Notes: a model not told the origin generated them from the letters alone. A stretch of DNA of 64,000 nt from Nannocystis pusilla (GCF_051105105.1 NZ_CP185339.1), one strand, 5' to 3'; counted from the first letter of the stretch, positions 22,718-54,878 are shown. Made by a program: numbers and translations.

Positions 22718-23441
22718 ATGTCCGCCTCTCGCCCGCTGCACCCCGCCGTCTCCGCCGCCATGAGCCGGCGCGATTTCCTCGCCCGCGCCGCCAGCGGCAC
22801 CGTCGTCGCCGCCATGGGCGGCGGCATGTTGTGGGTCCTGAACGACCGCCTCACGCGCGAGGCCAAGGCCATGACCCTCGCCGACGGCCGTCCGCGCCTC
22901 CCGCCCGGCCAGCGCGTGCTCGAGGCGCTGCGGCCCATGGGGGGCGTGCCCGGCTCGCCGAGCCCCGCCAACGTCAAGATCAAGGTCTACGGCGAGGTCG
23001 AGAAGCCGTTCGAGCTCGACTGGAACGGCCTGCTCGCCGAGCCGCAGACCGAGCTCGAGGCCAACGTCCACTGCGTCACCGGCTGGTCGCTGCTCGGCGC
23101 GGCGTGGAAGGGCGTGCGGGTCAGTCACCTGGCCGAAAAGGCAGGCCTCAAGAAGACCGCGCGCCACGTCGTGTTCGAGGGCGCCCACGGCTACACCGCC
23201 AACGTCTTGCTCGCCGAGGCGCTCGCGCCCGAACGTCCTGGTCGCCCACCGCCACGCCGGGAGGCCGCTCGCGCGCCCGCACGGCAGCCCGGTGCGCGCC
23301 GTGGTGCCCGGCCTCTACTTCTGGAAGAGCACCAAGTGGCTGACGGGCATCAAGTTCGTCGCCCGCGACGAGCCCGGCTACTGGGAGACCCGCGGCTACA
23401 ACGACCACGCCGACCCGTGGAAGGAAGAGCGCTATGCCTGA
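22718..23441 (+). CDS. Sulfite-oxidase-family molybdopterin oxidoreductase (MsrP/YedY-like) with a TAT signal. Frame disrupted by +1 at 23231 (GAACGTC).
   Basis: TAT signal [20 protein letters not shown]. The GGAAGG ribosome-binding site is present. The frame reads ...[16 protein letters not shown], then shifts +1 to [37 protein letters not shown]...[19 protein letters not shown]. Confidence 0.7.
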
Positions 23442-24015
23442 GCCCGAGCGCCGGCGCCCGGTCCGCTGGCGGCCGTGGCTGCGCGCCCTCCACCGCGACA
23501 TCGGCTACGTCGCCGTCGGCCTCACCTTCGTCTACGCGCTGTCGGGCCTCGCGGTCAATCACATCGCCGACTGGGACCCGAACTTCGACAACTACGAGGC
23601 GCGCCACCAGGTCGCCGTGCCGCTGCCCGAGGACGACCACGCCGCCGCCGACAAGGTGCTCGCCGCGCTCGCCGTCACCGGTCCGCCGACCGAGGTCTAC
23701 CGCAGCGACGCGCGCGAGCTGTCGATCCTCCTCGACGGCAGCACCCTCCACGTCGACCTCGACAGCGGCGTCGTCCTGGAGGACGGCCAGCGCCCGCGCC
23801 TCTTGCTGCGGGTCGCCAACTGGCTGCACCTGAACCGCGGCAAGAAGGCCTGGACCTACATCGCCGACGGCTACGCCGTGTTCCTGCTGTTCCTCGCCGC
23901 CTCGGGCCTGTTCATGCTGCCCGGCCGCAAGGGCCTGGTCGGCCGCGGCGGGGTGTTCGTGCTGCTCGGGATCGCCGTCCCGGTGCTGTACGTGACCCTG
24001 TCCGGCGGGCCATGA
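23434..24015 (+). CDS. PepSY-associated TM-helix membrane protein
   Basis: Translation [34 protein letters not shown] second TM near the C-terminus reads [15 protein letters not shown]. It overlaps the upstream gene by 8 nt. Confidence 0.7.
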
Positions 24016-24090
24016 CCTAAAAGACATGCCCGTTCGGGCATGTTCAAAAGGGCATGCCCTCACGGACATGCCCTTTCGTCCATTCCCCGC
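24010..24090. repeat. Palindromic decamer array, five units at 14 nt period (AGACATGCCC, GGGCATGTTC, GGGCATGCCC, GGACATGCCC, GTCCATTCCC)
   Basis: Best-ordered copy of the family in the window, in the convergent gap between the PepSY-like stop and the dienelactone-hydrolase stop. Confidence 0.8.
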
Positions 24091-24097
24091 CTCGGCC

Positions 24098-24880
24098 TCA
24101 CTGCAGCCGCTCGCGCAGGAACGACAGCGTGCGCTGCAGCGCCTGCTCGGTCGGGTGGCCGGTCTCGCGCACGAGGTCGACCGTCAGCACGCTGTGGGCC
24201 GACGGCTTGATCCCGTGGGCGTTGCCCGGGCCGGAGTCGATCTCGATCGCCTCGAAGCCCTCCTTGAGCTCGCGCTTCAGCGTCTCGAACCGCTCGCGCG
24301 GGACCTTGCCGTCGTGGGTGAAGCACAGGCCGAGCACCTTGAGGCCCTCGTCCTTGACCCGCCGCTTGACCGTGGCGAGCTCGTCCGGCGCGATCGCCAG
24401 CTGACCGCGCCGGGCCTTGCCGACCGGCAGCGGCAGCGCCGGCTGCGACATCACCGGCGCCATCAGCGACGGCTCGACCGCCATCGACAGCGCGAAGTTC
24501 CCCGTCAGGCACATGCCGATCGCGCCGACGCCCTTGCCGCCGAGCTCCTTGTGCAGCGCGCGGGCCAGGCCGCGCAGCCAATTCGTGATCGGGCTCGACT
24601 CCTGGCCGGCGAGCAGCTTGAACTCCTTGCTCACGCACAGCTTGAGCATCGTGCTGGCGAGGTAGCCGCCGGACACCGGCTTCATCGGCTCGCCGAACAG
24701 GTCGGGCAGGACCACGGTGAAGCCCGCGTCCGCCACCAGGTTGGCGAACGTGACCACCGCCTCGTGGATGCCGGGGACCTCGGTGATGATGATGACCCCC
24801 GGGCCGCGCCCGCGCCGATAGACCGTCTTGGTGACGCCCTCGTGGGTGAACTCCGATGCGCTGTAGCCCTGGATCGACAT
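24098..24880 (-). CDS. Dienelactone hydrolase family protein
   Basis: DLH-fold motifs IGMCLTGNFAL and HDGKVP. Confidence 0.85.
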   Translation of the reverse strand: MSIQGYSASEFTHEGVTKTVYRRGRGPGVIIITEVPGIHEAVVTFANLVADAGFTVVLPDLFGEPMKPVSGGYLASTMLKLCVSKEFKLLAGQESSPITNWLRGLARALHKELGGKGVGAIGMCLTGNFALSMAVEPSLMAPVMSQPALPLPVGKARRGQLAIAPDELATVKRRVKDEGLKVLGLCFTHDGKVPRERFETLKRELKEGFEAIEIDSGPGNAHGIKPSAHSVLTVDLVRETGHPTEQALQRTLSFLRERLQ

Positions 24881-24956
24881 CGGCGCGAGTGTATCAGCCT
24901 TCGGGCCGGCGTGAGCTTGTCAAATCGCGCAGAGGCGTGCGAGGCTCGGCGCCGCC

Positions 24957-25319
24957 GTGTCCTACGAGCTCTTCCTGGTCCTCCACATCTTCGGCATCGT
25001 CCTCCTCTTTATGGGCCTCGGCGGCCTCGCGTTCCATGGCATCGCCGGCGGCACTCGCGAGACCAACCCCGCGCGCGGGCTGGTCGCTGCCACGCACGGC
25101 GTGGGAACGTTGCTCATCGTCGCGGCCGGCTTCGGCATGCTCGGGGTGAAGTACGGCGGCGCCATGCCGGGCTGGGTTCACCCCAAGTTGCTCGCGTGGA
25201 TCTGCCTCGCGGCGGCCCCGGCGTTGGTGGCCCGCAAGCCCGGCGCCGGTCGCGTGCTGTGGTTCGTCGCACCGCTGCTCGGCCTCCTCGCCGCGTACTT
25301 CGGCCTCGACCACAAGTAG
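24957..25319 (+). CDS. Small integral membrane protein (about 4 TM)
   Basis: GTG start. Hydrophobic segments include LFLVLHIFGIVLLFMGLGGLAF and GVGTLLIVAAGFGML. Confidence 0.6.
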   Translation: MSYELFLVLHIFGIVLLFMGLGGLAFHGIAGGTRETNPARGLVAATHGVGTLLIVAAGFGMLGVKYGGAMPGWVHPKLLAWICLAAAPALVARKPGAGRVLWFVAPLLGLLAAYFGLDHK

Positions 25320-25325
25320 CGCGCG

Positions 25326-26888
25326 CTAGAACCAGCGCGCTGCGTAGGCCCGAAGCACCTCGATGCGAGCCAGCGGCGCTCGCACTGCGATGTGGCCGTC
25401 GGGCCTGAGCAGCACGAGCTCAGGCCCGCGCACTCTCCACCCGCGGACCACCGCGCCCGAAGGATCGCCGAGAGTCTCGGCGTCTCCTGTACCCAGGACC
25501 AGGTCGCGAACTACCAGCGATCGGCCCCACTTCTCCGCCAGCTCCCGACCCGCGATCGCCAGCGCCTGCGAGCGTGACGATCCGTGCATGAGCAACAGGG
25601 TCATCTTCGCCTCGCTCGCCACCAGCGCGTGCAGTGACACCGTCGCATCGCCCGCGCGCAGCATCGCCGCCGGCGCTCGATCACCGGCCTTCGGCGAGCG
25701 CCGCGACCAGCCGCGAGCGTCGATCACCGCCGGCGACTCGCGATACGACACGCCCGTCTGCGACATGCGCCGCGCCATCCGCTGCTGCAGCGCGCGTGAT
25801 CGCAGCGCCGTGCCGACGATCAGCTTGCGCAGCATCATCGTCCGTCGGCTCGTCGCGCCGCGGAACAGGCGGTCCGTCATCTCGAGCGTCCGCCTCGCCA
25901 CCGGCAATCGCTCCGCGTCGTACGTCGCCAGCAGCTCCGGGCGAGCGGCGCCGCGGGCCACCATCGCCAGCTTCCACGCCAGGTTGAAGGCGTCCTGGAT
26001 CCCCGTGTTCATCCCCTGCCCGCCGGCAGGGCTGTGGATATGCGCCGCGTCGCCGGCGAGGAACACCGAGCCCACCGCCATCCTCGGCACCATGCGGTGG
26101 TGCAGGCGGAACCGCAGGATCCACTCCGGGTCGTACAGCACCGCTCCGGGCACCAGCTCGTCGGCCAGCTTCTGGAACATCTCGAGCGTCGGCTCGGGCC
26201 CGTGACCGTCGCCGCCCATGGCGATGATGCGATAGCGACCGCGCGGCAACGGGGCGAACACCACCAGCCCCGCGGGCCGCAAAAACCCGCAGCCGAGCCC
26301 TGGCGGGCGGTCCCAGCGGATCTTCAGATCTGCCTGATCGAACATGTCCTCATAGGCAGAACCTTCGAACGGCAGCCCCAGGCCGTGGCGCACCGCGCTG
26401 TGGGAACCGTCGCAGCCGATCAGCCAGCGCGCCGTGACCGACTCGGTGCGGCCGTCGTCGCCGCCGATCGTCGCCACCACCTGCGAGCCCTCGTCGCGGA
26501 ACGACAGCAGCCGCAGCCCGCGATCGACCGCCCCGCCGAGGTGCCCCAGGTGCTCGGCCAGGATCCGCTCCGTCGCGCTCTGATCGAGGAACACCGGCCG
26601 CGGCACGTCGGGCCCGAACCGCGCGACGTCCAGCGTCCCCAGCAGTTGCGTCTCGAAGTACACCTGCACCGCCATCAGCGCCTCGGCCTCGGCCTCGACC
26701 GCCGCGCGCAGCCCCATCGCCTCGAACACCTCGCGCGTGCGCGCGTGGACGACCAGCGCCTTCGAGTGCTCGGTCGTGCGCGGCGCGGGATCGACCACCC
26801 GCACGGTCAGCCCGAACCGCCGCAGCTCGCACGCCATCGTCAGGCCCGTGGGCCCCGCTCCTGCCACCAGCACATCGATCGCCGCCAT
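25326..26888 (-). CDS. FAD-dependent aromatic-ring monooxygenase (PheA/TfdB class)
   Basis: FAD-binding GxGxxG as VLVAGAGPTGLTMA. Further motifs DGSHSAVR and GDAAHIHSPAGGQGMNTGIQDAFNLAWKLA. Confidence 0.85.
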   Translation of the reverse strand: MAAIDVLVAGAGPTGLTMACELRRFGLTVRVVDPAPRTTEHSKALVVHARTREVFEAMGLRAAVEAEAEALMAVQVYFETQLLGTLDVARFGPDVPRPVFLDQSATERILAEHLGHLGGAVDRGLRLLSFRDEGSQVVATIGGDDGRTESVTARWLIGCDGSHSAVRHGLGLPFEGSAYEDMFDQADLKIRWDRPPGLGCGFLRPAGLVVFAPLPRGRYRIIAMGGDGHGPEPTLEMFQKLADELVPGAVLYDPEWILRFRLHHRMVPRMAVGSVFLAGDAAHIHSPAGGQGMNTGIQDAFNLAWKLAMVARGAARPELLATYDAERLPVARRTLEMTDRLFRGATSRRTMMLRKLIVGTALRSRALQQRMARRMSQTGVSYRESPAVIDARGWSRRSPKAGDRAPAAMLRAGDATVSLHALVASEAKMTLLLMHGSSRSQALAIAGRELAEKWGRSLVVRDLVLGTGDAETLGDPSGAVVRGWRVRGPELVLLRPDGHIAVRAPLARIEVLRAYAARWF

Positions 26889-26900
26889 CGCTCCGCTCCT

Positions 26901-26963
26901 GCAAGTGAGTGCTCACTCACCGTGCCACGGCCCCATGGCGGTTGCAAGTGAGTGCTCACTCAG
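26901..26963. promoter_or_regulatory. Duplicated 20 bp operator-like inverted repeat GCAAGTGAGTGCTCACTCA(C/G), two copies 43 bp apart
   Basis: Copy 1 at 26901-26920 and copy 2 at 26944-26963. Each holds the inverted repeat TGAGTG-CT-CACTCA. Both lie in the divergent gap between the monooxygenase start and the tetR start. Confidence 0.6.
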
Positions 26964-26980
26964 GCCAAGCTCTCCGGGTC

Positions 26981-27604
26981 ATGGCCACGCGCGAAGACGA
27001 TCCAGGGCCGGTGCGCGGCGTCGAGCGCATCGTCCGCGCCGCGATCGAAGTCATCGCGGAGCGCGGCTTTCGGGGCGCCGCGACCAGCGAGATCGCCAGA
27101 CGGGCGGGCGTCGCCGAGGGCACGATCTTCCGCCACTTCAAGACCAAGCAGCTGCTGCTCGACCACATCCTCGAGCCGTTCGTCGAGCGGGTGCTCGCTC
27201 CGATCGCCTTCCGCGACCTGCACCGGCTGATCGACACCGACTACCCGGACTTCGCCGATTTCCTGCGGGAGTTCGCGCGCAACCGCCTCGCGGTCGCGCG
27301 CGAGCACGTGCCGGCGCTGCGGATCTTCTTACAAGAAGTCCCGCTCAGCCCGGAGCTGCGGACGATGGTGTTCCGCCACATCGGCCGCCACGTCGTCCCC
27401 GAGCTGCTGGCCGTCATCCGCAAGTACCAGGCGCGCGGACAGATCCGCAGCGACCCACCGGAGACCGTCCTGCGACTCCTCATGAGCGCGCTCGGCGGCT
27501 ACATCATCACGCGCCTGGCCATCCTGCCTGACTACCCGTGGGACGACGACCGCGAGATCGAGCTCACCATCGGCGCGATGACCCGCGGCCTGCGCCCCGA
27601 CTGA
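26981..27604 (+). CDS. TetR/AcrR family transcriptional regulator
   Basis: N-terminal HTH: RIVRAAIEVIAERGFRGAATSEIARRAGVAEGTIFRHFKTKQLLL. Confidence 0.85.
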   Translation: MATREDDPGPVRGVERIVRAAIEVIAERGFRGAATSEIARRAGVAEGTIFRHFKTKQLLLDHILEPFVERVLAPIAFRDLHRLIDTDYPDFADFLREFARNRLAVAREHVPALRIFLQEVPLSPELRTMVFRHIGRHVVPELLAVIRKYQARGQIRSDPPETVLRLLMSALGGYIITRLAILPDYPWDDDREIELTIGAMTRGLRPD

Positions 27605-27712: not shown

Positions 27713-27874
27713 CTCCGATACGTCCGTCTCACGCCTGAGCCTGCCTGTCGCCGTCCTGCCCTCTCGCCAACCTCACGCGCGCATCCCCGCAACGTCCCGT
27801 TCACCCTGCGCCTGCACCCTCATAGGGCTGGCCCCGCCCCTGCGTCCGCGCGCCCCGGTGCTACTCTGACGCAC

Positions 27875-29582
27875 GTGTTCGGCTCGCTCCCGCCGCCGCC
27901 GCGGCGCTACTTGCCCGCGCGCGTGCGCCTCGATCGGCTCGCCGATCTGGAGGCCTGCTACGGCGAGCTCGGCGCGCGACCGCTGCCGGCCGACGATCCC
28001 TGGACCCTCGAGCAGTGGCTGCGCGACTGGTCCGAGCTCGAGAGCCACCTCGCCGAGGCCCAGGCGCGGCGACAAATCGCCACCAGCTGCAGCGCCGACG
28101 ACCCCGAGGCCGCGCGCGCCTGGCTCGTCCACGTCGACGTCCTCGGCCCGGCCTGCAAACCGCTGCGCCACGGTCTCGCGCGGCGGCTCGTCGAGCACCC
28201 GGCGGCGGCTCGCCTCTCGCCGGGCCACGCCTGCGCCCTCGCGGTGCTGCGCAACCAGGCCGACCTCCACCGCCCCGCCCTCGTCCCGCTCGAGGCCGCC
28301 GAGCAGCACCTGTGCGCCGCCTACGGCCAGCTGCGGGCTGGCATGCGCTTCCACTGGGACGGCGTCGACACCCCGCTGGCCCACGTCGAGCGCAGCGAGG
28401 ACGACCCTGACCGTTCGCGGCGCGAGGCCGCCTGGCGCACCGTCGCGGCCGAGTTCCGCGCGGTCAAGCCCGAGCTCGATCACCTGTTCGACCGCCTCCT
28501 CGACAACCGCCGGGCCCAGGCTGCCGCCGCCGAGCTGCCCGACTACCGCGCCTATCGCTTCCGCCGCCTCGACCGCCTCGCCTACGGCCCCGCGGACTGC
28601 CTCGCGCTGCACGAGGCCATCGCCGCCGAGTTCGTCCCGCTCGCCGGCCTGGTCCTCCGTCGCCGCGCCGCCGCGCTCGGCCTCGAACGTCCTGCGCCCG
28701 TGGGACCTCGGGGCCTTGCCCGGTGGCCCGCTCGTCCCGTTCACCCGCGAGGAAGAACTGATCGCCGGCTGCGCGCGCGCCTTCGAGGCCGTCGATCCCG
28801 AGTTCGCCCGCCAGTTCTCGCGCCTCGCCGAACATGGCCTTTTGGACCTGATGTCGCGGCCAGGCAAGGCCGCCGGCGCCTTTCAGGTCCACCTCCACGC
28901 CAGCGGCCTCCCGTTCGTGTTCGCCGGCGGCGTCGGCCGCCACGAGGACCTGCTCACCGTCTTGCACGAGGGCGGCCACGCCTTCCACGCCCTCGCCTGC
29001 GCCGCCGACCCGCTGATCTGGAACCGCCACCCGCCGATCGAGTTCTGCGAGGTCGCCGGCATGGGCATGGAGCTGCTCGCCGCCGCCCACCTGCGCGCCT
29101 TTTACGACGCCGACACCTGCGCCCGCGCAGCCCGCCACCAGCTCGAGCAGCTCGTCCTCTTCCTCCCCCACGCCGCGGCCATCGACGCCTTCCAGCACTG
29201 GGTCTACACCCGCCCCGACGAGGCCCGCGAGCGTGCGGCCCGCGACGCCGCCTGGCTCGCGCAGCACCGGCGGCTGTGCCAGGGCGTCGACTGGAGCGGC
29301 CTCGAGGCCGACCGCGCCGCCCTGTGGCAGCGCCGCCTCCACGTGTTCGAGCTGCCCTTCTACTACATCGAGTACGCGATCGCCGGCCTCGGCGCCGTCC
29401 AGCTCCACCGCCGCGCCCTCGCCGAGCCCGCCGCCGCCGTCGCCGACCTCCGCCGCGCCCTCGCCCTCGGCGCCCGCGCCCGCCTGCCCGACCTGTTCGC
29501 CGCCGCCGGCCTGCACTTCGGGACCGATCGCAGCGCCGTGCGCCGGGCCGCCGCCGCCTGCCGCGAGCTCCTCGACCTGTAA
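27875..29582 (+). CDS. pepF: Oligoendopeptidase F (peptidase M3B). Frame disrupted by +1 at 28685 (GAACGTC).
   Basis: Zinc-binding motif HEGGHAFH. The upstream frame ends ...AAEFVPLAGLVLRRRAAALGLE and the protein continues in the +1 frame as NVLRPWDLGALPGGPLVPFTREEEL. Confidence 0.8.
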
Positions 29583-29725: not shown

Positions 29726-29759
29726 GCAGCCGGCCGCCGCGAGCGCCTAGACCTTTGTC

Positions 29760-34486: not shown

Positions 34487-35681
<1,195 letters not shown>

Positions 35682-37830: not shown

Positions 37831-38134
37831 CGGCGCCCACCGGCTGCTTCGCGTCGTCCTCGCGCCGGCGCCCGGGCGCGCGAGGGCATGCGAGCGCCGC
37901 TCGAAATGCCGCGGCCTGGGCAGTGGTAAAGCCCCGGCGCGCGGTCCGGACCCCAGCGTCCTGAGCCGCGCAGAACCTCGCTCGCCGCGGCTTCTCGCGT
38001 GCGACTTGCTTCAGGACCCGCGCCGCCTGAGACTTCTTCGAGCCGGATGGGACCGTTCCGCCTCGAGACTTCTCACCAGCCGCAACGTCCGGGACCGCCT
38101 CGAACGTCTCGAGCTACCGTTCAATCAATACGGG

Positions 38135-38968
38135 ATGGATCCGTTCGGGATCTCCAAGAAGCACCTCGGCGTCTTCTATTCGATGCTCGAGGTCTTCTAC
38201 AAAAATTACTTCCGGGTGAAGTGTTTCGGCATCGACAACGTGCCGGAGCGCGGCAGCGCGATGCTCGTCGGCAACCACTCCGGCGGTCTACCGGTCGACG
38301 GCGGCATGGTGCTCGCCTCGCTGTTCTTCGCCCGCGACCTCCCGCGCCACGCCACCGGCATGGTCGAGAAGTTCGCCGGCAACTGGCCCTTCGTCTCGGA
38401 GTGGTTCTCGCGCGTCGGTCAGCTCCCCGGCCTGCCCGAGCACGCCTTGCGGCTGCTGCAGGACGGCCGCCTGCTGATGATCTTCCCCGAGGGCGCGCGC
38501 GGCACCGGCAAGCTCTTCAAGGATCGCTACCGCCTCGTCCAGTTCGGCACCGGCTTCATGCGGATCGCCCTGCAGACCGGCGCGCCGATCGTCCCCTTCG
38601 CCTTCATCGGCGGCGAGGAGGCCCTCCCCACCATCTACCACGCCAAGACGCTGGCCAAGATCGTCGGCGCGCCCTACTGGCCGGTCCCTCCGTACCTCGT
38701 CCCGTTCCCGCTGCCGCTCGGCTGCGAGATCCACTACGGCAAGCCGATGCACTTCCCCGGCACCGGCCGCGAGCCCGACGAGGTCATCGAGGGCTACGTC
38801 GAGCAGGTCAAGAGCGTCGTCGAGCTGCTGGTCCTCCGCGGCTGCGCGCTCCACCGCCAGCGCGCCGACGGAACTTTCGCACAGGAACCCGAGGACAGCT
38901 CGTCCGGCTCGTCCTCCCCCGCGCCCTCCTCGACCTCCGGCTCGACCGACTCCGACTCCGAACCATGA
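38135..38968 (+). CDS. Lysophospholipid (1-acyl-glycerol-3-phosphate-type) acyltransferase
   Basis: Acyltransferase motifs NHSGGLPVDG and FPEGARG. The start is placed at MDPFG because upstream codons have low GC3. Confidence 0.7.
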   Translation: MDPFGISKKHLGVFYSMLEVFYKNYFRVKCFGIDNVPERGSAMLVGNHSGGLPVDGGMVLASLFFARDLPRHATGMVEKFAGNWPFVSEWFSRVGQLPGLPEHALRLLQDGRLLMIFPEGARGTGKLFKDRYRLVQFGTGFMRIALQTGAPIVPFAFIGGEEALPTIYHAKTLAKIVGAPYWPVPPYLVPFPLPLGCEIHYGKPMHFPGTGREPDEVIEGYVEQVKSVVELLVLRGCALHRQRADGTFAQEPEDSSSGSSSPAPSSTSGSTDSDSEP

Positions 38969-39876
38969 AGATCCTGATCACCGGCATCAACGGCGCCCAC
39001 GCGCGCATGGTCGCCCTGCGCCTGCGCGCCCGCGGCGACGAGATCCTCGGCATCGACCGCCGCCCCTGGCCCGACGCGCCCGAGGGCGTGCACGTGTTCC
39101 AGACCGACGTGCGCAAGCGGCCGGCCGCCGACGTGTTCCGCCAGCACCGGCCCAACGTCGTCATCCACATGGCGACGATCACCCACTTCACCGCCAGCGC
39201 CGAGGAGCGGCTGCGCATCAACCTCCACGGCACGCGCCTCGTGTTCGAGTACTGCCACGAGTTCGGCGTCAAGCAGGCCGTGTTCGTCGGCCGCCACACG
39301 ATCTACGGCGCCGCCCCCGACGCGCCGCTGTACCGCACCGAGGAGGAGCCGCCGCTGGCCGTCTCGACCTTCCCCGAGCTGGCCGACCTCGTCGCCGCCG
39401 ACCTGTTCGCCGCCGCCGCGCTGTGGCGCTGGCCCGGGCTCAAGACCGCCGTCCTGCGCATGGTCTACATGCTCGGCCCGACCCACCGCGGCACCCTCGC
39501 CAGCTTCCTCGCCGGCCCGCGCGTGCCGATGATCCTCGGCTTCGACCCGCTCTACCACTTCATGCACGACGAGGACGGCGTCGAGGCGATCGTGCGCGCC
39601 GTCGATCACCAGCTGAGCGGGATCTACAACGTCGCCGGTCCGCCGCCCGTCCCGCTGTCGACGCTGGCCCGCGGCACCGGTCGCCAGCCGATCCCGATCC
39701 CCGAGCCGCTCTTCAAGTACAGCGCCGGCCGCTTCGGCCTGCCCTACCTGCCGCCCGGCGCCGTCGCCCACATCAAGCACCCGATCGTCGTCGACGCCAC
39801 CGCCTTCCGCCGCGCCACCAACTTCGAGCACAAGCACGACGCCCACGCCGTCATGGTCAGCTTCCGCGAGTCCTGA
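38965..39876 (+). CDS. NAD-dependent epimerase/dehydratase family protein
   Basis: Translation MKILITGINGAHARMVALRL. Overlaps the acyltransferase stop as ATGA. Confidence 0.8.
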   Translation: MKILITGINGAHARMVALRLRARGDEILGIDRRPWPDAPEGVHVFQTDVRKRPAADVFRQHRPNVVIHMATITHFTASAEERLRINLHGTRLVFEYCHEFGVKQAVFVGRHTIYGAAPDAPLYRTEEEPPLAVSTFPELADLVAADLFAAAALWRWPGLKTAVLRMVYMLGPTHRGTLASFLAGPRVPMILGFDPLYHFMHDEDGVEAIVRAVDHQLSGIYNVAGPPPVPLSTLARGTGRQPIPIPEPLFKYSAGRFGLPYLPPGAVAHIKHPIVVDATAFRRATNFEHKHDAHAVMVSFRES

Positions 39877-39925
39877 AGGACATGTCGCGGAGGCCATGTC
39901 GTGACAGACATGTCCCTCAGGACCC
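39877..39925. repeat. Palindromic decamer array (GGACATGTCG, GGCCATGTCG, AGACATGTCC, GGACCC)
   Basis: Starts immediately after the epimerase stop. Period is 14 nt. Confidence 0.75.
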
Positions 39926-40652
39926 GCGGTACGTCCCCGGCCGGTAGCGCAGCAGCGCCACCTCGAACGCCTCGAAGTGCTCGGCCAGCAGCTCGACCCG
40001 GCGCACCAACGCCGCCAGCTCGACCGGCGCGAGCCGCGGACCCCGTCCCGCCGCGCGCTTGGCCGGCAGCGCGGGGCTGTCCCCGGGGCTGTCCGCCGGG
40101 CCGGCGTCGAGCGCCTCGCCGAGCAGCACCGCCTCGAACGTCGTGGGTCGAGATCCCGACGTGGGCGACAAGCTCGCGCTCCTCGGGCCCGAGCTCGCGG
40201 ACGCTGCGGATCCAGCTCCACACCCAGGCGTCGATCGCCGCGTCGGCCGGGTCGGCGGCCTCGACCGCGAGCCGCAGCGCGCGTGTCTCTCGGGCCAGCT
40301 CGGCCACGCGGGGCGGCAGGTGCTCGAGGGCCAGCGCCGCGTCCGCGCCCGCCAGCGCTTGCCGCTCCATCAACGGCAGCGGGCGAGCGAGCACCCCCGA
40401 GAACGACGCGAACGCGATCGTCCCCAGCGTGCTCGCGAAAAACACCAGCTCGAGCGGGTCAAACACCCCACGGATGAGCGCGGTGACGATGACGGCGATC
40501 GTCGACACGGCCGCCCAGATCGCCAGGATCTTGGCTCGCCGGCGGCGCTCGAGGCGACGCGTCTCGATCGCCGCGGCGAGCCGCTGGTGACGAGCCGTGC
40601 GCGTCTGCGCACGAATGGTTATCGCCGCCCCGTCGCCTCGATCACCTGGCAC
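39917..40652 (-). CDS. Hypothetical membrane protein (2 TM plus C-terminal domain). Frame disrupted by +1 at 40136-40142 (coding-strand GACGTTC).
   Basis: The N-terminal frame ends ...GISTHDV and the C-terminus continues in the +1 frame as ...FEAVLLGEALDAGPADSPGD. Removing one base at plus-strand GAACGTC rejoins them as ISTHDVEAVLLGE. The start is uncertain. Confidence 0.5.
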
Positions 40653-41587: not shown

Positions 41588-42470
41588 GTGCCCGGCGGCG
41601 CGTCCCCTCTCGCTCGTCCGGTCGCCGTCGTCGGCGCCGGCTTCCTCGGCGCCCCCGTGGCCGCCGCGCTCGCGGCGACCGGGGGCGTCGGTGATCCACC
41701 TGTCCTTGCGACCACGCGCTCTGGGACATGGCCTGGCGGACATGTCCCGGAGGGCATCGAGCTCCGCCCGCTCGAACGTCGCCGCGCTCGCCCCGGCCGA
41801 CATCGCCGCGGTCCTCGCCGGCGCGCGCGCGCTGGTCGTCTGCTACGCCCCCGGCAAGCAGCAGGACCGCCGCGAGCTCTACGTCGAGGGTACCCGACGG
41901 CTGCTCGCCGCCGCGGTCACTCTCCCGCTCACCCGCCTCGTCTACACCTCATCCACCTCGGCCCTGCCCGACCGCGACGGCTGGCTCGACGACGACTGCC
42001 GCGAGTGGCCCGACGAGCCGCGGGGCCGCGTGCAGCGCGAGGCCGAGGAGCTGGTGCGCGACACCTGCACGCGCCGCGCGGTGCCGTGGACGATCCTCCG
42101 CCTCGGCGGCCTCTACGGTCCGGGTCGCGAGCTGTTCCGCCTCTACCGCGGCGCCGACGACGACGCAGTCCTTGCGGGCGACGGCATGCAGCCGACCAAC
42201 CTCATCCACTGCGAGGACGCCGTGCAGGCCGTCCTCGCCGCCTTGACCCTCGCGCCGGACGAGCACGGCGTCGTCAACGTCGTCGACGACGACCACACCC
42301 CGCGGCGCGAGATCTTCGCTCGCCTCGCCGCCCTCGCCGGGCGACCGCCCCCGCAGTGGGAGCGGCCCGCGGGTCCGGCCGCGATCGGCAAGCGGGTCGG
42401 CAACGCGCGCCTGAAGACGCTCCTGCGCGTGGCCCTCCGGCATCCCTCTCACACCCCGGCGAGCCCCTGA
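41588..42470 (+). CDS. NAD(P)-binding epimerase/SDR-fold protein. Frame disrupted by +1 at 41774 (GAACGTC), beside a palindromic element.
   Basis: The Rossmann N-terminus RPVAVVGAGFLGAPVAAALAATGG reads in one frame up to ...PEGIELRPLE. The remainder (NVAALAPADIAAVLAGARALVVCYAPG...) reads in the +1 frame. Confidence 0.65.
41697..41760. repeat. Palindromic element (CACCTGTCC, GGGACATGGCC, GGACATGTCC) inside the SDR coding region
   Basis: Codons across it have low GC3: tct ggg aca tgg cct ggc gga cat gtc. Confidence 0.65.
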
Positions 42471-42512: not shown

Positions 42513-43409
42513 ATGAACGTCGCCGCCGCCGTCACCCACCTCCTTCCCCTCCCGGCCGGTGGCGGCGTCGCCGCCCCTCTTGATGTGGTGGAGCTCCAGT
42601 CCGAGCTCAACGTCCTCGCCGACGAGGCCCTGCGCGCGCGCCGCCAGGGCCTTTCTTTGTTGGCCGCCGTCCGCGACCCGCGTTTCCCGGCCCTCCAGAG
42701 CTTCCACCAGGGCCTGCGCGACGCCCTCTTCCTCGAGATACCGGAGGAGCTGGAGCCGTGGGCGCGGCTCGCCGCCAACGGAGCCGGCAATCCGCCGCTG
42801 CAGCACATGCTCGTCGACTTCGCCCGCGGCGGCGACGACGACCGGCGCAGCGCCCTCCAGGCCGCCCTGGCCGAGCTGCTGGTGTTCGAGGCCATCCGTC
42901 TGCGCCTGTTCGTCACCGCCTTCCGCGGCGAAGAGTTCGAGGTCGTCGGCGGCGAGGAGTCCGACGTCGACGCCATCGCCTACACCGAGGTAGCGACGCT
43001 CCTCCACCGCCCCGAGCTGGCCGACCCCGATGTCCGCCCGCTCACCGTCCTGCTCGCGTCCGCCTCCGTCTCGCTGGCCCGCGACGCCCAGTCGCGCGCC
43101 GAGGAGCTGCGTGACACCGGCGAGGACACCCGGGAGGAGCTGCGCATGCGCGCCCGCCTCCGCGCCGCCCTCCGCGAGCTCCGTCTGCCCGAGGCCGTCC
43201 TGCTGGAGAACGCCCTGGCCGCGCTGCTCGGCGAGGAGCGGCGCGAACTCACCGAACTGCAGGCCGAGCGCCCCGTCGCCCTCGACGGCATGACTCGCCA
43301 GGCCATGGATCAGCGGGTCTCTCGCGGCCGGCGAGCGCTCGCCCACCCCCGCTCGACCTGGCCCCGCCGCCGCCGCCCGGCCCTGTTCGATCTGCTCCAG
43401 CGCGCCTGA
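42513..43409 (+). CDS. Hypothetical protein
   Basis: 298 aa with high GC3. Confidence 0.55.
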   Translation: MNVAAAVTHLLPLPAGGGVAAPLDVVELQSELNVLADEALRARRQGLSLLAAVRDPRFPALQSFHQGLRDALFLEIPEELEPWARLAANGAGNPPLQHMLVDFARGGDDDRRSALQAALAELLVFEAIRLRLFVTAFRGEEFEVVGGEESDVDAIAYTEVATLLHRPELADPDVRPLTVLLASASVSLARDAQSRAEELRDTGEDTREELRMRARLRAALRELRLPEAVLLENALAALLGEERRELTELQAERPVALDGMTRQAMDQRVSRGRRALAHPRSTWPRRRRPALFDLLQRA

Positions 43410-43793: not shown

Positions 43794-44330
43794 ATGGCCG
43801 CCCCACCCGAACCCACACGCGGACCGCGGATCGCCCTCGCAGCGGTGATCGCCGGTCTCAGCCTCGGCCTCGACCTTTGGAGCAAGGCGTGGGTCTGGAA
43901 CAACCTGCGAGACCAGGCCGCCTGGAAGGTCAGCGACAAGCTGCTGCACTTCGACTTCGCCTGCAATCCCGGCTCTGCCTTCGGGTTCCTCAACGACGTC
44001 GACTGGGCGCGCTACTTCTTCATCGTCATCACCCTGGCCGCGGTCGGCTACCTCGTCCACCTCGCGCGGACCTTGCCGACCACCAGCCGGGCCGCCTTCA
44101 TCGCCATCGGCCTGATCGCCGGCGGCGCCCTCGGCAACCTGCACGACCGCCTGGTCCGGGTCTACGCCGGCGACTACTGCGTGGTCGACTTCATCGTCGT
44201 CTACCTGTGGGGCGGCAAGACCTGGCCGGCCTTCAACATCGCCGACGCCGTCCTGGTCGCGGGCGTGTTGTTGTTCCTGCTCGTGCTGCCGCGCACCGAG
44301 GCCGCCGCCGACGACCGGACCTCCGCCTGA
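43794..44330 (+). CDS. lspA: Lipoprotein signal peptidase (signal peptidase II), copy 1
   Basis: LspA motifs NPGSAFG and FNIADAVLVAG. Confidence 0.85.
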   Translation: MAAPPEPTRGPRIALAAVIAGLSLGLDLWSKAWVWNNLRDQAAWKVSDKLLHFDFACNPGSAFGFLNDVDWARYFFIVITLAAVGYLVHLARTLPTTSRAAFIAIGLIAGGALGNLHDRLVRVYAGDYCVVDFIVVYLWGGKTWPAFNIADAVLVAGVLLFLLVLPRTEAAADDRTSA

Positions 44331-45022: not shown

Positions 45023-45607
45023 ATGAGCGACACGCCAGCATCGAACCGGCTCCGGCCAATCCTCATCACCGCCTCTGCAGCCGCGGTGTTTCTGATCCTC
45101 GACCTCGTGACCAAGAGCTGGGCCTGGGACAACCTCCGGCCGCCGAACCGGCAGATTGCCGCGATCGGCAACTGGTTCCACTGGTCCTACAGCTTTAACA
45201 CGGGCTCCGCCTTCGGCTTCCTGCGCGGCCAGGACTTCTCGCGCCCCCTGTTCATCGTCGTCACCCTCGTGACGGTGGTCTACATGGCCGCCCTCGTCCG
45301 CAAGCTGCCGACCGACCGCCTGTACGGCTTCTTCGCCATCGGCTGCATCATCGGCGGCGCCCTCGGCAACATGCACGACCGCCTGTTGCGCCAGGACACC
45401 GACCCCCACGGCAACCTCACCCACGGCGTGGTCGACTTCATCCGCGTGTGCTCCCCGTGGAACCCTCGCGGTCTGTGCTGGCCGAACTTCAACGTCGCCG
45501 ACATCGCCCTCGTCGTCGGCGTCCTGCTGCTCATCCCGTACTTGATGTTCCACGCGCAACCACCGGAAACAAAAGAGAATACAGCCGAGGCAAAACCCGC
45601 TTCCTGA
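45023..45607 (+). CDS. lspA: Lipoprotein signal peptidase (signal peptidase II), copy 2 (paralog)
   Basis: LspA motifs FNTGSAFGF and FNVADIALVVG. Confidence 0.85.
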   Translation: MSDTPASNRLRPILITASAAAVFLILDLVTKSWAWDNLRPPNRQIAAIGNWFHWSYSFNTGSAFGFLRGQDFSRPLFIVVTLVTVVYMAALVRKLPTDRLYGFFAIGCIIGGALGNMHDRLLRQDTDPHGNLTHGVVDFIRVCSPWNPRGLCWPNFNVADIALVVGVLLLIPYLMFHAQPPETKENTAEAKPAS

Positions 45608-47922: not shown

Positions 47923-48685
47923 TCACGGCCCGGCGATCGCCCGCGCGGGGCTCGCCCCGCCGGCCCCGTCCTGAAGCAGCCGCTCGTACGCATAGAACCG
48001 GCGCAGGACCGCCTTCACGTACGCCCGCACCCCCGGGTGTGGCGGTACCCCGCCGTACTTCTGCACCGCGCCGGCGCCCGAGAAGTAACCGGCCGCCACC
48101 AGCACCATGTCGCCGCCGAACCGGTTGGCCAGGAGGCGCAGGAACTTGGCCCCGCCGTAGATGCTTCTGGCGTGGGTCGAACGGCTGCTGGACCCCGAGG
48201 AAGCGCGCAGTCGACGGCATCAGCTGCATCAGCCCCATCGCCCCGGTGCTGCTGACCGCCCCGGGATAGTAGTTGCTCTCGGTGTGAATCACCGCGCGCA
48301 CCAGCGACTCGGGCAGCTGATACAGCCGCGCCGCCCCGCGGATGTGCGTCTCCCAGCGACGCGAGCGTTCGTCGGCCAGCGCCTCGGCGACCTCGACCTG
48401 CGGATCGCGGCGCGGCGCCGATGGTTCCGCCTCGGCCGCCGCTGTCTTCGGCGCCCCGCCTTCGCCGCCGCTGCCTGGCATCTCTTCGACCTCGCGTCGT
48501 CCCGCGCCGACAGCGCGCACGGGCGTCACGTGGACCACCCCCTGCGCGTCCGTGTAGCGGCGGTAGGTCGGTTCGGCCGCACCCGCGGTGCCCGGAAGCG
48601 CGATCAGGATCGCCGCCAGCACCGCCGCGCAGCTGTCCCGCGTCTGCCAGGTCCGCCGCTGCGGCATGGGCCGATCCGCTCCCAC
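47923..48685 (-). CDS. Lytic transglycosylase (SLT domain) with signal peptide. Frame disrupted by +1 near 48160 (not at GACGTC).
   Basis: The catalytic region ESNYYPGAVSSTGAMGLMQLMPSTARFLGV...FDPRQ reads in one frame. The rest of the SLT domain (IYGGAKFLRLLANRFGGDMVLVAAGYFSGAGAVQKYGG) reads in the +1 frame. Confidence 0.7.
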
Positions 48686-48756
48686 GGGCCCAGCCTATCG
48701 CCGCCGCGGACCCTTGTCGACCGGCCCCGCCGCTCTGCTACTTTCGCCCCACCACC

Positions 48757-50370: not shown

Positions 50371-50385
50371 GCCCACCTGGCCTTT

Positions 50386-51084
50386 GTGACAGGAATCAAC
50401 CGAGCCGTGCCCACGCTCCGCGCACCCGGCCTTCGGCGGCCCGTACGGCGCCGCTCGTCCTTGCTGCTCGCAGGTCTGTTGCTGATCGCCTGTCGCGGCG
50501 GAGGCGGCGCGCGCAGCCCCGAAGCGTTGCGCGAGGCCTATGCCCGCGCTCTGGCCGCCGACGACCCGGCAGCTGCGTACGCGCTGCTAAGCCCGGAGCT
50601 GCGCGCGGCGACCTCGAAAGAGGCGTTCACGGCGCGCTGGAAAGCGCAGGCGGCCGAGCGCTCGGCAGCCAAGGCCGCGCTCGACACGCTGCCTCCGGCG
50701 CTCAGGACGCCGGTGCGCGGCGGCGAGACCATCCACGACGGCGCCGTGCTCGCATGGGCGCAAATCGGCGGCGAGTACCAGGTCGTGACCGGCCTGCCGG
50801 GCTTGCCGGACCTCTCGACCCCGGCTAGCGCGATTCGGGCCTTTCTGGCCGCCGTTCGGCGGGCCGATCTCGGCGCGCTCTCCGCGCTGCTCGCAGACGA
50901 TCTCTCTTCGCGCCTCCGCGACGACTGGAACCGCCGGGCGGACCTTCTGGAGCAACTCCTGAAGCAACCTGGGGCAATTGAGTTCACGCCGGGGATGGAA
51001 CGCGCGATCCTGCGCTACGAGCCCGGGCGCGCCCTGACGCTCGAGCAGACTCCTCAGGGATGGCGGATCGTGGCCCTGCAGTGA
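50386..51084 (+). CDS. Hypothetical lipoprotein
   Basis: LLLAGLLLIAC lipobox. GC3 is moderate. Confidence 0.5.
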   Translation: MTGINRAVPTLRAPGLRRPVRRRSSLLLAGLLLIACRGGGGARSPEALREAYARALAADDPAAAYALLSPELRAATSKEAFTARWKAQAAERSAAKAALDTLPPALRTPVRGGETIHDGAVLAWAQIGGEYQVVTGLPGLPDLSTPASAIRAFLAAVRRADLGALSALLADDLSSRLRDDWNRRADLLEQLLKQPGAIEFTPGMERAILRYEPGRALTLEQTPQGWRIVALQ

Positions 51085-51546
51085 GATATGCCAGGTTCAC
51101 ACCGTTCTTTTCACTGGACGCGCCTTACCCGGCTGCTATCTACTTTGCCCGACAGGCGGGCAAACCCGCTCGTCCGGGGTGGCTACAATCGTAGCCACCT
51201 CCAGTAGCCACCTGACTGCTGGCCTCGCGATGGCCGGCAAGTGGCCGACCGGTGTCCGGGCGGCCGTCCGATTACCGACCCCTTGGCTTGTCGCTGCTTC
51301 TTCGCCCTTTCCGCCGCGCCATCCACCGGCGGCGCCGTCACCCGCAGGATTGCCCCGATCGGCCCCCTGGGCCTTTTTTCCGCTTAAGGAGCACCCTGCG
51401 CCGACGCGCCGAGCCCGACTGCACCGGGCCCAACTGTCCCGAACTACCCTGAAGGTGGGGGAAATCGTCCCCACGACGCCCGTCGACGAGTCGGCGGCAC
51501 AAGAGGTGCAGAGGGGCGCGCGCAAACGCCTGGAGACGAACTGCCG

Positions 51547-52038
51547 ATGCAACCCCGATTCAACGTTGGTGAGAAGGCCGTTTACCCGACTCACGGTGTC
51601 GCCGAGGTCATGGCCCTCGAGACGAAAATCATCGAGTCGCGCCCCTTCCAGTTCTATCACCTGCGCGTCCTCGGCTCCGGCCTGAAGATTATCGTGCCGG
51701 TGGCCAAGGCCGAAGAGAACGGCATGCGGTCCCTCGCCGACGGCGAGATGATCGACGAGCTCTACGATCTGCTGCGCGACCACGAGGTCCCGTGCGATCG
51801 CCAGACCTGGAACCGGCGCTACCGCGGCTTCATGGAGAAGATCCGCACCGGTTCGCTGTTCGAGGTCGGCGAGGTGTACCGCGATCTGAGCCTCCTCAAG
51901 CACACCAAGAACCTCTCGCACGGCGAGCGGCAGATGCTGCAGACCGCCCGGAACCTGGTCATTCGTGAGCTCTCGACCGTCCGCAACGAGCCCGAGTCCG
52001 CGATCGCCGCCGAGCTGGACTCGATGCTGCAGGCTTGA
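51547..52038 (+). CDS. cdnL: CarD/CdnL family RNA-polymerase-binding transcription factor
   Basis: 163 aa. Translation FNVGEKAVYPTHGVAEVMALETKIIESRPFQFYHLRVLGSGLKIIVP. Confidence 0.85.
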   Translation: MQPRFNVGEKAVYPTHGVAEVMALETKIIESRPFQFYHLRVLGSGLKIIVPVAKAEENGMRSLADGEMIDELYDLLRDHEVPCDRQTWNRRYRGFMEKIRTGSLFEVGEVYRDLSLLKHTKNLSHGERQMLQTARNLVIRELSTVRNEPESAIAAELDSMLQA

Positions 52039-52051
52039 GTAAGGTCCGCGC

Positions 52052-52579
52052 GTGGCCACCGACATCAATGAGTCCGTCGAGATCCAGATCTCGACCTTGC
52101 CCTGGGAGCAGATCGCGGTCGACGCCTTCGTCTGTCCGACCAACTCCGAGGGCGTGATGAGTCACTTCCCGGCCAACAAGATCCGCGACCTTGCCGGTCG
52201 CGAGGTCGAGGCGATGGTGAAGGAGCACACCCCGCTGGCGATCGGCGCCGCGTTCGTGACGCCGGCGGGCAAGATGAAGGCGAAGTACCTCATCCATGTG
52301 CCCAACACCGATCGCCCCGGCGGTCGCGTCCAGGTCGAGGATGTCCTGCGCGCCACCGCGGCGGTGTTGGTGGCCTGCAAGGTCAAGGGCTTCACGAGCG
52401 TCGCCGTCCCGCTGATGGGTGCGTTCGAGCTCGGGATCCCGGCCGAGGAGGCCGCTCGCGCGATTCACAGCGAGCTCAAGGTCTACCGCGGCGACCGCCC
52501 GCTCCGCGCCTTCCTCATGGCCAAGGACGCCGACGACGTCGAGGTGTTCGAGCTGGCCATGGAAGGGAACATCCCGTAG
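52052..52579 (+). CDS. Macro domain (ADP-ribose binding/processing) protein
   Basis: Translation AFVCPTNSEGVMSHF...KYLIHVPNTDRPGG...VAVPLMGAFELGIP. Confidence 0.8.
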   Translation: MATDINESVEIQISTLPWEQIAVDAFVCPTNSEGVMSHFPANKIRDLAGREVEAMVKEHTPLAIGAAFVTPAGKMKAKYLIHVPNTDRPGGRVQVEDVLRATAAVLVACKVKGFTSVAVPLMGAFELGIPAEEAARAIHSELKVYRGDRPLRAFLMAKDADDVEVFELAMEGNIP

Positions 52580-52927
52580 ATGGGCCCCCTGCTCGACTAC
52601 CTGCCGCTCGTCGCAGCCGTCGGGCTGATCGGGGTCCTCGCCGGCCTGGTCCGTGCGCGCGCGAGGCAACAGGCCGCGCCCGACGCCGGCGAGAGTCTGG
52701 TGCAGCTGCGCCCGCGTCAGCCTGTCGACACCGGCGGCCTCCTCGCGCTCGCCGGCCTCGGCTTCGCGCTCGCGCTGGCCCTGGTCCTGTTCGCGCCGAC
52801 CGCCGCGGTCTGTCTGTCCAGCACGACATGTCCGGAAGGACCTGCCCTTTGGGTCAGCGCCGCCGGCCTCGGTCTGCTGGGCCTGGCGACCGCGATCGCC
52901 TGGCCTTCGCTGACGCGCGCGCCATGA
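52580..52927 (+). CDS. Small membrane protein with a palindromic element embedded in-frame
   Basis: The ATG directly follows the macro-domain stop. Two TM segments. Codons 52824-52858 (acg aca tgt ccg gaa gga cct gcc ctt) have low GC3 and equal GACATGTCCggaaGGACCTGCCC. Confidence 0.5.
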   Translation: MGPLLDYLPLVAAVGLIGVLAGLVRARARQQAAPDAGESLVQLRPRQPVDTGGLLALAGLGFALALALVLFAPTAAVCLSSTTCPEGPALWVSAAGLGLLGLATAIAWPSLTRAP

Positions 52928-53650
52928 TCCGCCCGCGCGCCGCCGCCTCGCCTGCGCCCGCGTCGGCGAGCGGCGCCGTCTCGCTGCGCGTCTCGGCGAA
53001 TGATTCTGCCCCAAGCGTCGGCGACGTAGCGCTGCCGGACGAAGTCTCGCGCGAGCTCCAGTCGCAGCTTCGCGGCATCGAGGTTCGTGCGAGCTCCTCG
53101 CTCGGGCTCGCGTCGCGGGACTTCGCGCTGCGATCGTCCACTTCGTTCTCGCGTCGCGTCGAAGAAACGCCGGCCATCTCCTCGCCCTACGCCGCTTCGA
53201 CGCCCCCGCTTCGTAGCGACGTTCGAGGCAAGCGCGAGCGTACGGTCGGAGGTCAGGTCACTGCAACCGTCCGCTTCGCTCATGCACGCAGTCGACGCGA
53301 CGCTGGTGCTCTCCTCGCGCGAGGCCGCGTCGCCGCCGCTTTTTCATCGCGGCTCCGAAGCAAGCGCGAGCACTCGCTTTGCGCTCGCGTCGCCGCGACC
53401 GTCCGCTTCGGTCATGCATGCGGTCGACGAGACGCGGACGAGTTCCTCGTCCGAGACCGCGTCGCCGCCCGCACTTCCTCGCGACCTCGACGTAAGCGCG
53501 AGCGCCCGGCCCGAGGTCGCGTCGCCGCATCTCCTTCCTCGCGGCTTCGATGTGAGCGCGAGCTCTTCGTCCGAGGCCGTGTCGCGGGGCGGCGCGCTGC
53601 GACTGTCCCCGCTCCGTCTCGGTCGCGTCGCGCACGCGAGCTCGTTCCCC
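52928..53650. repeat. Degenerate tandem repeats of about 66 nt (GCTTCG..CATGCA..GTCGACG..AGCGCGAGC..GCGTCGCCGC)
   Basis: At least five copies. In translation they give a 22-aa Ser/Ala/Pro-rich period. One copy contains a GACGTTC variant at 53218. Confidence 0.6.
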
Positions 53651-53652
53651 CG

Positions 53653-54878
53653 TCGCAGCATCCTCGGCACCGCGACGTCGCCCGTCGCGCCTTGTGTCCT
53701 CTTCTTCGCCCTCGCGCTCGGCTGCGGCGCGCCGCCCACGGGTGTGCGCGCCGAACCGGGAACGCTGGTGTTCACCCCGGCGGCGGAGCGGCTCGAGCTG
53801 CGGCTCGTGAATCACGGCGCGGCGCCCGTCCCGTTGACGCGGATCCGCTTCGACACCCGTACCCCCGACTGGGGCGCCTTCTCGATCGAGAACCGCGAGT
53901 ACCCGCGGGAGATCGCTGCCGGCGGAGCCGTGAGCCTGCGCCTCCGCGTCGACCGCGACCACTTCGATCGCACCGGCGCCTCCCGCTCCGGCAGCGCGCG
54001 CCTCCTCTTTGCGGCGGGAGAGGCGCCCCAGATCGTCGAGCTCCGCTATGAGCCGCCCGATCTCGGGGGCGATCTGCGGCGCACGGCGATCCGCACCGCC
54101 CTGGCGCTCGCGCTCGTCGCGCTGGCGTGGATCTCGACGCGGCGTACCCGGCTGAACTGGACCGCGTGGCTGCCGGTGGTGGCCGTCCTGGCGCTGTTCC
54201 CGTTCGGTCCGGGCCTGTGCTTCGACAGCGTCGGCAGCAGCCTCTCCGCCGCGGACGTTCGAGCAGTGCTCCGCGGGTCGGGGAGGTACTTCGCTGTCGC
54301 TGATCGCCGTGGGCGAAGGCTGGCTCGTCTATCTCGTCGCTCTCGTGCTCGCCGGTCTCGGTCGCCTCGTCGACCGGGCTGCGCTGGCCCGCCGCCTCGC
54401 GTCGCGCGACCTCGCCCTCGCCGCCGCATTCGCCGGTCCATTGCTGGCCTTTGGCACCCTCGATCCACGGCGACTCGTGGGGGAGCAAGCAGCGAGGCTC
54501 GTCGGCGGTGCTGCGATCCCCCCCGCCTGGGGAATCTTCGTGCAACCGATCGCCGCGGCCGTCGCCCTCGCGGTCGCGGCCGCCCCGCCGGCAGGACGAC
54601 TCGAGCGGCTCGCCTTTGCGGCGGCGTTCGTCGCCTGTTTCCTCGGCGGCGGTTTGCCCGCGGCGGCGCTCGCCGGCAGCGGCCACGGCCTCGTGCTGTT
54701 CATCGGCGCAGTCGTGGCGGCGGCGAAGATCGCTGCGGTCGTGTGGTTCGTGCAGCGGCTGCACGCGTCGGCCACCGGCTCGCGTGCGCGCGCTGCTCTC
54801 TTCTTTCTCGAGCGGGCCGCGATGCCCCTGGCGATCGCGAATTTGCTGGTGACGTTGGCCTACGGCCTGCTGCGGTGA
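53653..54878 (+). CDS. Lipoprotein/membrane protein (N-terminal Ig-like domain plus C-terminal polytopic TM). Frame disrupted by +1 at 54254 (GACGTTC). Start unresolved.
   Basis: LFFALALGC lipobox with no canonical start codon nearby. The frame reads through ...SLSAADV and continues in the +1 frame as SLSLIAVGEGWLVYLVALVLAGLG. Confidence 0.45.

Follow-up and report, generated by a model that had tools for sequence, protein, structure and literature searches.

The 64,000-nucleotide (nt) stretch of Nannocystis pusilla DNA analyzed here (72% G+C; below, the window) contains five unrelated genes that each change reading frame at the same heptamer, GAACGTC or its complement GACGTTC. Both forms correspond to the palindrome GACGTC with one extra base. 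Do these genes carry real mutations, are they read through by some form of recoding, or is the deposited sequence wrong? We conclude that the five frameshifts are in all likelihood errors of the consensus sequence that are absent from the DNA of the organism, and that a base modification at GACGTC is probably what causes them. At least nine Asp-to-Asn changes in the window are almost certainly consensus errors as well. The extra bases and the substitutions are specific to this record, they fall at ancestral GACGTC sites, and they are phased by strand in blocks along the sequence.

The original prediction had placed GAACGTC at 23231, 28685, 40136, and 41774 and GACGTTC at 54254, and the heptamers are found at exactly these positions. 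The extra bases lie at 23232, 28686, 40137, 41775, and 54258, each inside an ancestral GACGTC. We tracked reading frames with a codon-position GC model and checked repair by alignment to an ortholog before and after deletion of one base. As predicted, the frame favored by codon-position GC shifts by +1 at 23231, 28685, 40136, and 54254, none of which has a stop codon. At 41774, where the upstream frame extends for only ~190 nt, the shift was visible by translation, since the Rossmann-fold N-terminus VAVVGAGFLG reads straight into the heptamer. Each of the five deposited genes gave two partial alignments in different frames, which became one full-length alignment when one base was removed. The ancestral GAC GTC encodes Asp-Val at all five sites, in agreement with the conserved dipeptide that had been proposed.

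The relatives used for comparison were N. pusilla Na p29T (GCA_026626665.1), which was sequenced by Oxford Nanopore Technologies (ONT) R9.4.1; strain MIELM (GCA_049060185.1), which was produced with ONT R10.4.1, Guppy, Flye, and medaka in the same laboratory as strain UBH4, to which we return below; ILAH1 (GCA_026626585.1); GCA_049337375.1; the genome records of N. bainbridge and N. punicea; short-read Logan contigs; and one Joint Genome Institute (JGI) metagenome contig. The close relatives are 96 to 97% identical to the window and cover 58 kb of it, 50 kb by at least two genomes. None of them, the short-read Logan and JGI metagenome contigs included, has the extra base at any of the five sites, and nearly all have GACGTC there. 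A search of metagenomes for short-read data from the same strain, made with patterns flanking 23231, gave no match. Na p29T and MIELM carry frameshifts of their own, of the homopolymer kind, yet keep GACGTC at the sites concerned. In both strains, CCC is shortened to CC within pepF (window position 28405); 2 nt are missing at 38205 from the Na p29T acyltransferase gene; and many runs of G, C, and A in MIELM are one base short, homopolymer deletions that probably inflate the gene count of that genome (14,925).

The first frameshifted gene (22718 to 23441, + strand) encodes a YedY/MsrP-like molybdopterin oxidoreductase and has GAACGTC, with its extra A, at 23231 to 23237. Once repaired, it aligned with ortholog residues 1 to 240. 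The site reads GACGTC in six relatives, GATGTC in one, and GACGCC in one, always without the extra base. The second, pepF, encodes an M3 oligoendopeptidase (27875 to 29582, + strand; GAACGTC with an extra A at 28685 to 28691). Its repaired product aligned with ortholog residues 1 to 568, with 99% of it covered by 568-amino-acid orthologs. Here, too, the relatives lack the extra base, the site being GACGTC in Na p29T, GACGTT in MIELM, and GCCGGC in N. bainbridge. The third gene lies on the − strand (39917 to 40514) and encodes a 198-amino-acid membrane protein. Its heptamer (40136 to 40142) is GAACGTC on the + strand and thus GACGTTC on the coding strand, and the repaired product aligned with ortholog residues 1 to 198; Na p29T and the short-read Logan contig L087 have GACGTC at this site, and N. 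bainbridge has GATGTC.

The fourth gene (41588 to 42470, + strand) encodes an NAD (nicotinamide adenine dinucleotide)-dependent epimerase of the short-chain dehydrogenase/reductase (SDR) type and has GAACGTC, again with an extra A, at 41774 to 41780. After repair, its product aligned with ortholog residues 1 to 293 and was 100% covered by 293-amino-acid orthologs, and the site is GACGTC in Na p29T and in three Logan contigs. The fifth encodes a NuoH-like lipoprotein/membrane protein (~53651 to 54878, + strand, with an uncertain start) and has GACGTTC, with an extra T, at 54254 to 54260. The repaired product aligned with ortholog residues 1 to 501 and was 100% covered by orthologs, and the site is GACGTC in Na p29T and in Logan contig L090. 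In three of the repaired proteins, a single Pfam domain stretch crosses the site: PF00174 in the YedY-like protein, PF01432 in PepF (one stretch, residues 180 to 549), and PF01370 in the SDR (residues 14 to 230). Full-length Nannocystis orthologs of the repaired PepF, SDR, and NuoH-like proteins are 85 to 95% identical to them, and the frameshifted genes are otherwise undamaged, with 93 to 95% identity to orthologs on each side of the shift.

Insertion turned out not to be the commonest change at this hexamer. The original prediction had missed a set of GACGTC-to-AACGTC substitutions that outnumber the insertions. Among 36 ancestral GACGTC sites in the window, each backed by at least two relatives, 19 are kept, 9 read AACGTC, 5 have the 1-nt insertion, and 3 have other substitutions. 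Relative to Na p29T, 21 of 31 GACGTC sites are altered, against a mean of 19% for all 6-mers (P = 3.5e-9), and control palindromes were altered far less often (GTCGAC, 4 of 64; GAGCTC, 6 of 63). At base 1 of the hexamer, G-to-A changes occur at ~25 times the rate of background transitions (P ≤ 4e-9). Of seven 1-nt insertions that are coding and specific to the window, five fall in ancestral GACGTC, which makes up 0.44% of the compared sequence (P ~4e-11). We counted 24 intact copies of GACGTC in the window, rather than the ~13 besides the affected sites that had been reported, where shuffled sequences give 43 ± 6; restoring the changed sites brings the count to ~41, near the expected value.

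All nine AACGTC sites are on the + strand. They lie at 8782 to 8787 (GACGTC in four relatives; GAC [Asp] to AAC [Asn]), 11405 to 11410 (GACGTC in five relatives), 19231 to 19236 (seven relatives), 22970 to 22975 and 23063 to 23068 (eight relatives each; both in the YedY-like gene), 27791 to 27796 (Na p29T and MIELM; upstream of pepF), 38084 to 38089 (relatives; N-terminus of the acyltransferase), 39154 to 39159 (three relatives; a 303-amino-acid epimerase), and 42609 to 42614 (five relatives). The site at 27791 is in a stretch with no assigned frame; the eight sites in assigned coding frames all change Asp to Asn. Asp residues lost through G-to-A change at codon position 1 are kept in all relatives, and the version of the 303-amino-acid epimerase with Asn at the 39154 site is present in the source N. 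pusilla record only. Overall, the window-specific substitutions comprise 402 synonymous and 197 nonsynonymous changes. The same change is less well supported at four additional sites: 17073, considered below, and three at which it appears on the − strand, as GACGTT. The latter are 49624; 54851 to 54856, where Na p29T has GACGTC and Logan contig L090 has GACCTC; and 62768 to 62773, an Asp-to-Asn change in an HMG-CoA (3-hydroxy-3-methylglutaryl coenzyme A) synthase gene for which the one relative with GACGTC is Na p29T. We found no flanking-base rule that separates changed from kept sites: CTC precedes four of the five insertions, but CTC-GACGTC is also kept (35383) and substituted (19231 and 42609).

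The heptamer itself is much more frequent than the six copies implied by the original prediction, with 18 occurrences in the window when both GAACGTC and its complement are counted. That prediction had also raised the possibility that the heptamer occurs equally often without consequence for the frame. In the window, 9 of the 18 copies are indeed unchanged in length relative to the relatives, and 5 are the frameshift sites. Eight of these nine are identical in the relatives, and the ninth (35577) is CAACGTC there; the remaining four copies lie outside the coverage of any relative. Judged from these comparisons, the heptamer itself has no frame consequence, and an ancestral GACGTC is what is decisive. 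The copy that had been assigned to a probable leader at 38092 is in fact at 38102. It is ancestral and in frame, and we rejected it as a sixth case; the real shift of that gene is at 38070, as described below. A stretch without alignment to the relatives, 53131 to 53606, contains the heptamer at 53218; positions 53178 to 53585, upstream of the NuoH-like gene, are occupied by 132-nt and 60-nt imperfect tandem repeats (72 to 75% matches).

The orientation of the changes tracks position rather than gene strand. All events from 8782 to 42609 place the A on the + strand, including the insertion at 40136 in a − strand gene, and all events from 49624 on place it on the − strand, including the insertion at 54254 in a + strand gene. 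Consequently, the coding strand reads GAACGTC in three of the frameshifted genes and GACGTTC in two, the mixture of orientations that had been noted originally and taken to speak against ribosomal recoding, an argument that stands. For 17 oriented events, such perfect segregation by position has a P value of ~3e-4, and the substitutions at 8782 and 11405, which were found later, fit the + block. Dependence on the coding strand would fit the substitutions but is contradicted by the insertions at 40136 and 54254, whereas positional blocks fit all events. A switch in the direction of replication does not account for the phase either, as GC skew is negative across the whole window. Regions also differ in how often sites are altered, with 12 of 17 changed between 17 and 43 kb and 2 of 13 between 3.5 and 17 kb (P = 0.004).

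What kind of data gave rise to this record? Eight proteins encoded in the window are exact matches to N. pusilla NCBI proteins in the range XWX07132 to XWX07173 (WP_4344156xx), all encoded on one contig, and the source genome is almost certainly that of N. pusilla strain UBH4. Nannocystis sp. UBH4 has been described as a single-contig genome and called an N. pusilla subspecies, and the isolates of that study were sequenced with ONT R10.4.1 and processed with Guppy v6+, Flye, and medaka, short reads being unmentioned (PMC12766979). Through the assignment to UBH4, the source is almost certainly a nanopore-only assembly of native DNA that received no short-read polishing.

Assemblies of this kind are known to contain errors caused by base modification. 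R10.4.1-only assemblies carry modification-caused C-to-T and G-to-A errors that persist after medaka or Racon. The errors are confined to reads from a single strand; reads are 54 to 65% accurate at such sites; and within GATC, it is G and C that are affected (Liu et al. 2024, Genome Res, PMC11610603). A more recent study found that, in R10 data, G-to-A is raised more than any other class at methylated motifs; some positions had alternative-base fractions of >50%, and the strands were imbalanced (bioRxiv 10.64898/2026.01.14.699587). The changes that we describe resemble those of both reports in occurring in native-DNA, nanopore-only data, in being bound to a short motif, in surviving medaka, and in depending on strand. 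As with the errors at GATC, the G-to-A change affects a G beside a presumed methylated A, and the involvement of only part of the sites fits the read accuracy of 54 to 65% (PMC11610603). There are two differences. In the published systems, the errors are substitutions and indels are unaffected, whereas about one-third of the present events are frameshifting 1-nt insertions in which an A is duplicated; and strand dependence was seen there as a bias at the read level, whereas here it appears as a block-wise phase of the consensus.

A further parallel is provided by ONT assemblies of Listeria, in which a strain-specific modification likewise causes recurrent errors at one motif that become recognizable when close relatives are compared (Modpolish; Chiou et al. 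2023, PMC10687267). In that work, lineage-specific motifs gave thousands of consensus mismatches after medaka. The Listeria motifs, GCAGC and GCTGG, showed mismatches only, whereas the motif here is the palindrome GACGTC and shows insertions too.

Homopolymer indels in long-read assemblies are a familiar source of single-base frameshifts and inflated gene counts. The insertions in the window also cause single-base frameshifts, but they lie outside homopolymer runs and duplicate a single A within the hexamer.

These parallels suggest how the pattern could arise. The palindrome GACGTC would be modified on both strands in this strain, most likely as G-6mA-CGTC (6mA, N6-methyladenine). At a modified site, the basecaller would either call the G before the A as A, giving AACGTC, or call the A twice, giving GAACGTC; by analogy with G-6mA-TC, AACGTC would be the expected miscall, and the insertion could be another product of that signal disturbance. 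For each half-site, the miscall would be limited to reads of one strand, such that about half of the reads disagree, and the polished consensus could tip either way with the local mix of read strands. A strand-limited miscall combined with such a local read mix would leave about half of the sites affected, with the strand constant over tens of kilobases and with differences between regions; shifts of phase and frequency on this scale are what one would expect if the local mix of long reads decides the outcome. That the modification is 6mA, rather than some other, we regard as an evenly balanced call, made from the positions of the errors and from REBASE entries. The original prediction had preferred a cause at the level of the DNA or the data, with a systematic basecalling or assembly insertion beside a modified base as its first option and a site-specific mutational process as its second. 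The absence of the base from relatives, the nanopore-only assembly, and the G-to-A changes at the same motif support that first option, and the second is much less likely; the link of the first to methylation, and to 6mA especially, is one that we infer.

Several points weigh against this explanation. Both the split by read strand and the modification of GACGTC are deduced rather than observed, and the insertion form extrapolates from a literature that describes substitutions at modified motifs. No gene for a DNA methyltransferase was found in the window or in the relatives' syntenic regions. The assignment to UBH4 lacks support from any accession stated in PMC12766979, and in the − strand block a single event is well supported, the other three being weaker. 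Finally, the AACGTC at 17073 is also present in a short-read Logan contig (SRR26602169). This one change may reflect natural polymorphism and not an error, which makes blind correction of every such site unsafe.

Two further frameshifts, also absent from the original prediction, lie outside the motif and bring the number of frameshifted genes to 7 of roughly 55 in the window. In the acyltransferase gene (38047 to 38968, + strand), an extra T at 38070, at about codon 9, gives GAGAC(T)TCTC. The base is absent from Na p29T and N. bainbridge, and repair allowed alignment with ortholog residues 1 to 303. In an SLT lytic transglycosylase gene on the − strand (47923 to 48667), an extra T on the + strand at 48165 gives GATGC(T)TCTGG. 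This base is absent from Na p29T and Logan contig L090, and the repaired product aligned with ortholog residues 1 to 247. Both sites read C(T)TCT, so that on the opposite strand AGAG has become AGAAG, the duplicated A again following G-A. The two shifts may point to a second modified motif, although there are just two cases.

These two shifts would also fit an artifact without base modification, in which the basecaller or polisher has a general weakness in the context of GACGTC. Such a weakness would account for errors in a nanopore-only assembly for which neither a methyltransferase nor a modification signal has been observed. However, GACGTC is preserved at every shared site in MIELM, which comes from the same laboratory and the same combination of R10.4.1, Guppy, Flye, and medaka; the errors of that assembly are homopolymer deletions. 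Such a contrast within one laboratory and platform is in keeping with a strain-specific modification rather than with a general basecaller weakness. Moreover, published motif-bound G-to-A and C-to-T errors vanish in amplified DNA (PMC11610603; bioRxiv 10.64898/2026.01.14.699587). We therefore consider a purely contextual artifact improbable.

Still harder to sustain is the view that the changes are real, the products of a site-specific mutational process at GACGTC, such as one associated with AatII-type restriction-modification, that has recently left true Asp-to-Asn replacements and frameshift pseudogenes. The changes are, after all, present in the deposited sequence and strictly motif-specific; the hexamer is depleted; a G-to-A change at base 1 is a C-to-T change at base 6 of the opposite strand, as would result from deamination of a methylated outer cytosine; and a short-read contig has the change at 17073 as well. 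Deamination, however, leaves five identical 1-nt insertions unexplained, and a 5-methylcytosine hotspot of the Dcm type, which would fit the substitutions, was rejected because 5 of the ~17 events are insertions. Nor does cutting help, on geometric reasoning: the overhangs produced when a 6-bp palindrome is cut are 0, 2, or 4 nt long, and filling them in gives no duplicated A; we discarded restriction cutting followed by end joining on the same ground.

The state of the genes argues in the same direction. Real mutation would require that 7 of ~55 genes had been freshly inactivated without further decay, and the parts downstream of the shifts show no decay, with full-length, high-scoring alignments after repair. 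If loss of the site had been selected, the changes should be synonymous, but there are at most two such changes, and every coding G-to-A change replaces Asp with Asn. Strand phase by position, following neither gene strand nor GC skew, and the nanopore-only origin of the genome speak against real mutation as well. Taking these points together, we regard it as very unlikely. We would give no more credit to a recent strand-asymmetric process, for example, a side activity of restriction-modification or DNA editing that duplicates the A or converts the flanking G; if real, it would have hit about half of the GACGTC sites and inactivated many genes at once. Programmed recoding, in which the extra base is real and is bypassed by +1 ribosomal frameshifting or RNA polymerase slippage, would explain why the same heptamer stands at all five shifts with intact frames downstream, but it is scarcely credible when that heptamer occurs in both orientations on the coding strand (GAACGTC three times and GACGTTC twice), all orthologs are single frame without the extra base, nine other copies are read in frame, and the homopolymer run that slippage would need is missing.

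Several neighboring loci were also noted. A polyketide beta-branching cassette on the − strand (58459 to 64000) is conserved in all Nannocystis relatives. It comprises genes for an acyl carrier protein, two enoyl-CoA hydratases, the HMG-CoA synthase (62051 to 63292), and a ketoreductase-like protein, and it includes two tandem SDR paralogues (58783 to 59590 and 59595 to 60410). At about 58.0 to 58.2 kb of the window, Na p29T has a DDE_3 transposase insertion between conserved genes (contig positions 14933 to 16359) that the window lacks. Two signal peptidase II genes (lspA, Peptidase_A8) lie near each other at 43794 to 44330 and ~45023 to 45607, and both are found in Logan contig L090. A partner-switching module on the − strand (11945 to 15422) encodes a 135-amino-acid STAS-like protein (13035 to 13442), which is identical in at least five Nannocystis genomes, together with a kinase-like protein and a SpoIIE phosphatase, and adjoins a gene with a guanylate cyclase domain.

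For users of this genome, the consequences are mainly those of data quality. About half of its GACGTC sites are likely to be miscalled. If the window is typical, extrapolation from this single stretch puts the number of false frameshifts in the 12.2-Mb genome on the order of a thousand and that of false Asp-to-Asn changes at a few thousand. False frameshifts and substitutions of this kind raise pseudogene counts and skew pan-genome and biosynthetic-cluster analyses. More generally, modified motifs are apparently able to cause insertion errors in addition to the known substitutions.

For the biology of the strain, the YedY-like, PepF, SDR, membrane-protein, and NuoH-like genes are very probably intact, and the biological weight of their apparent frameshifts is small. 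The error pattern implies the palindrome that is also that of AatII-type restriction-modification systems, GACGTC, and the window itself contains no methyltransferase or endonuclease gene of such a system. A strain-specific modification of GACGTC, which probably reflects an AatII-type restriction-modification system, would be relevant to the genetic manipulation of this organism.

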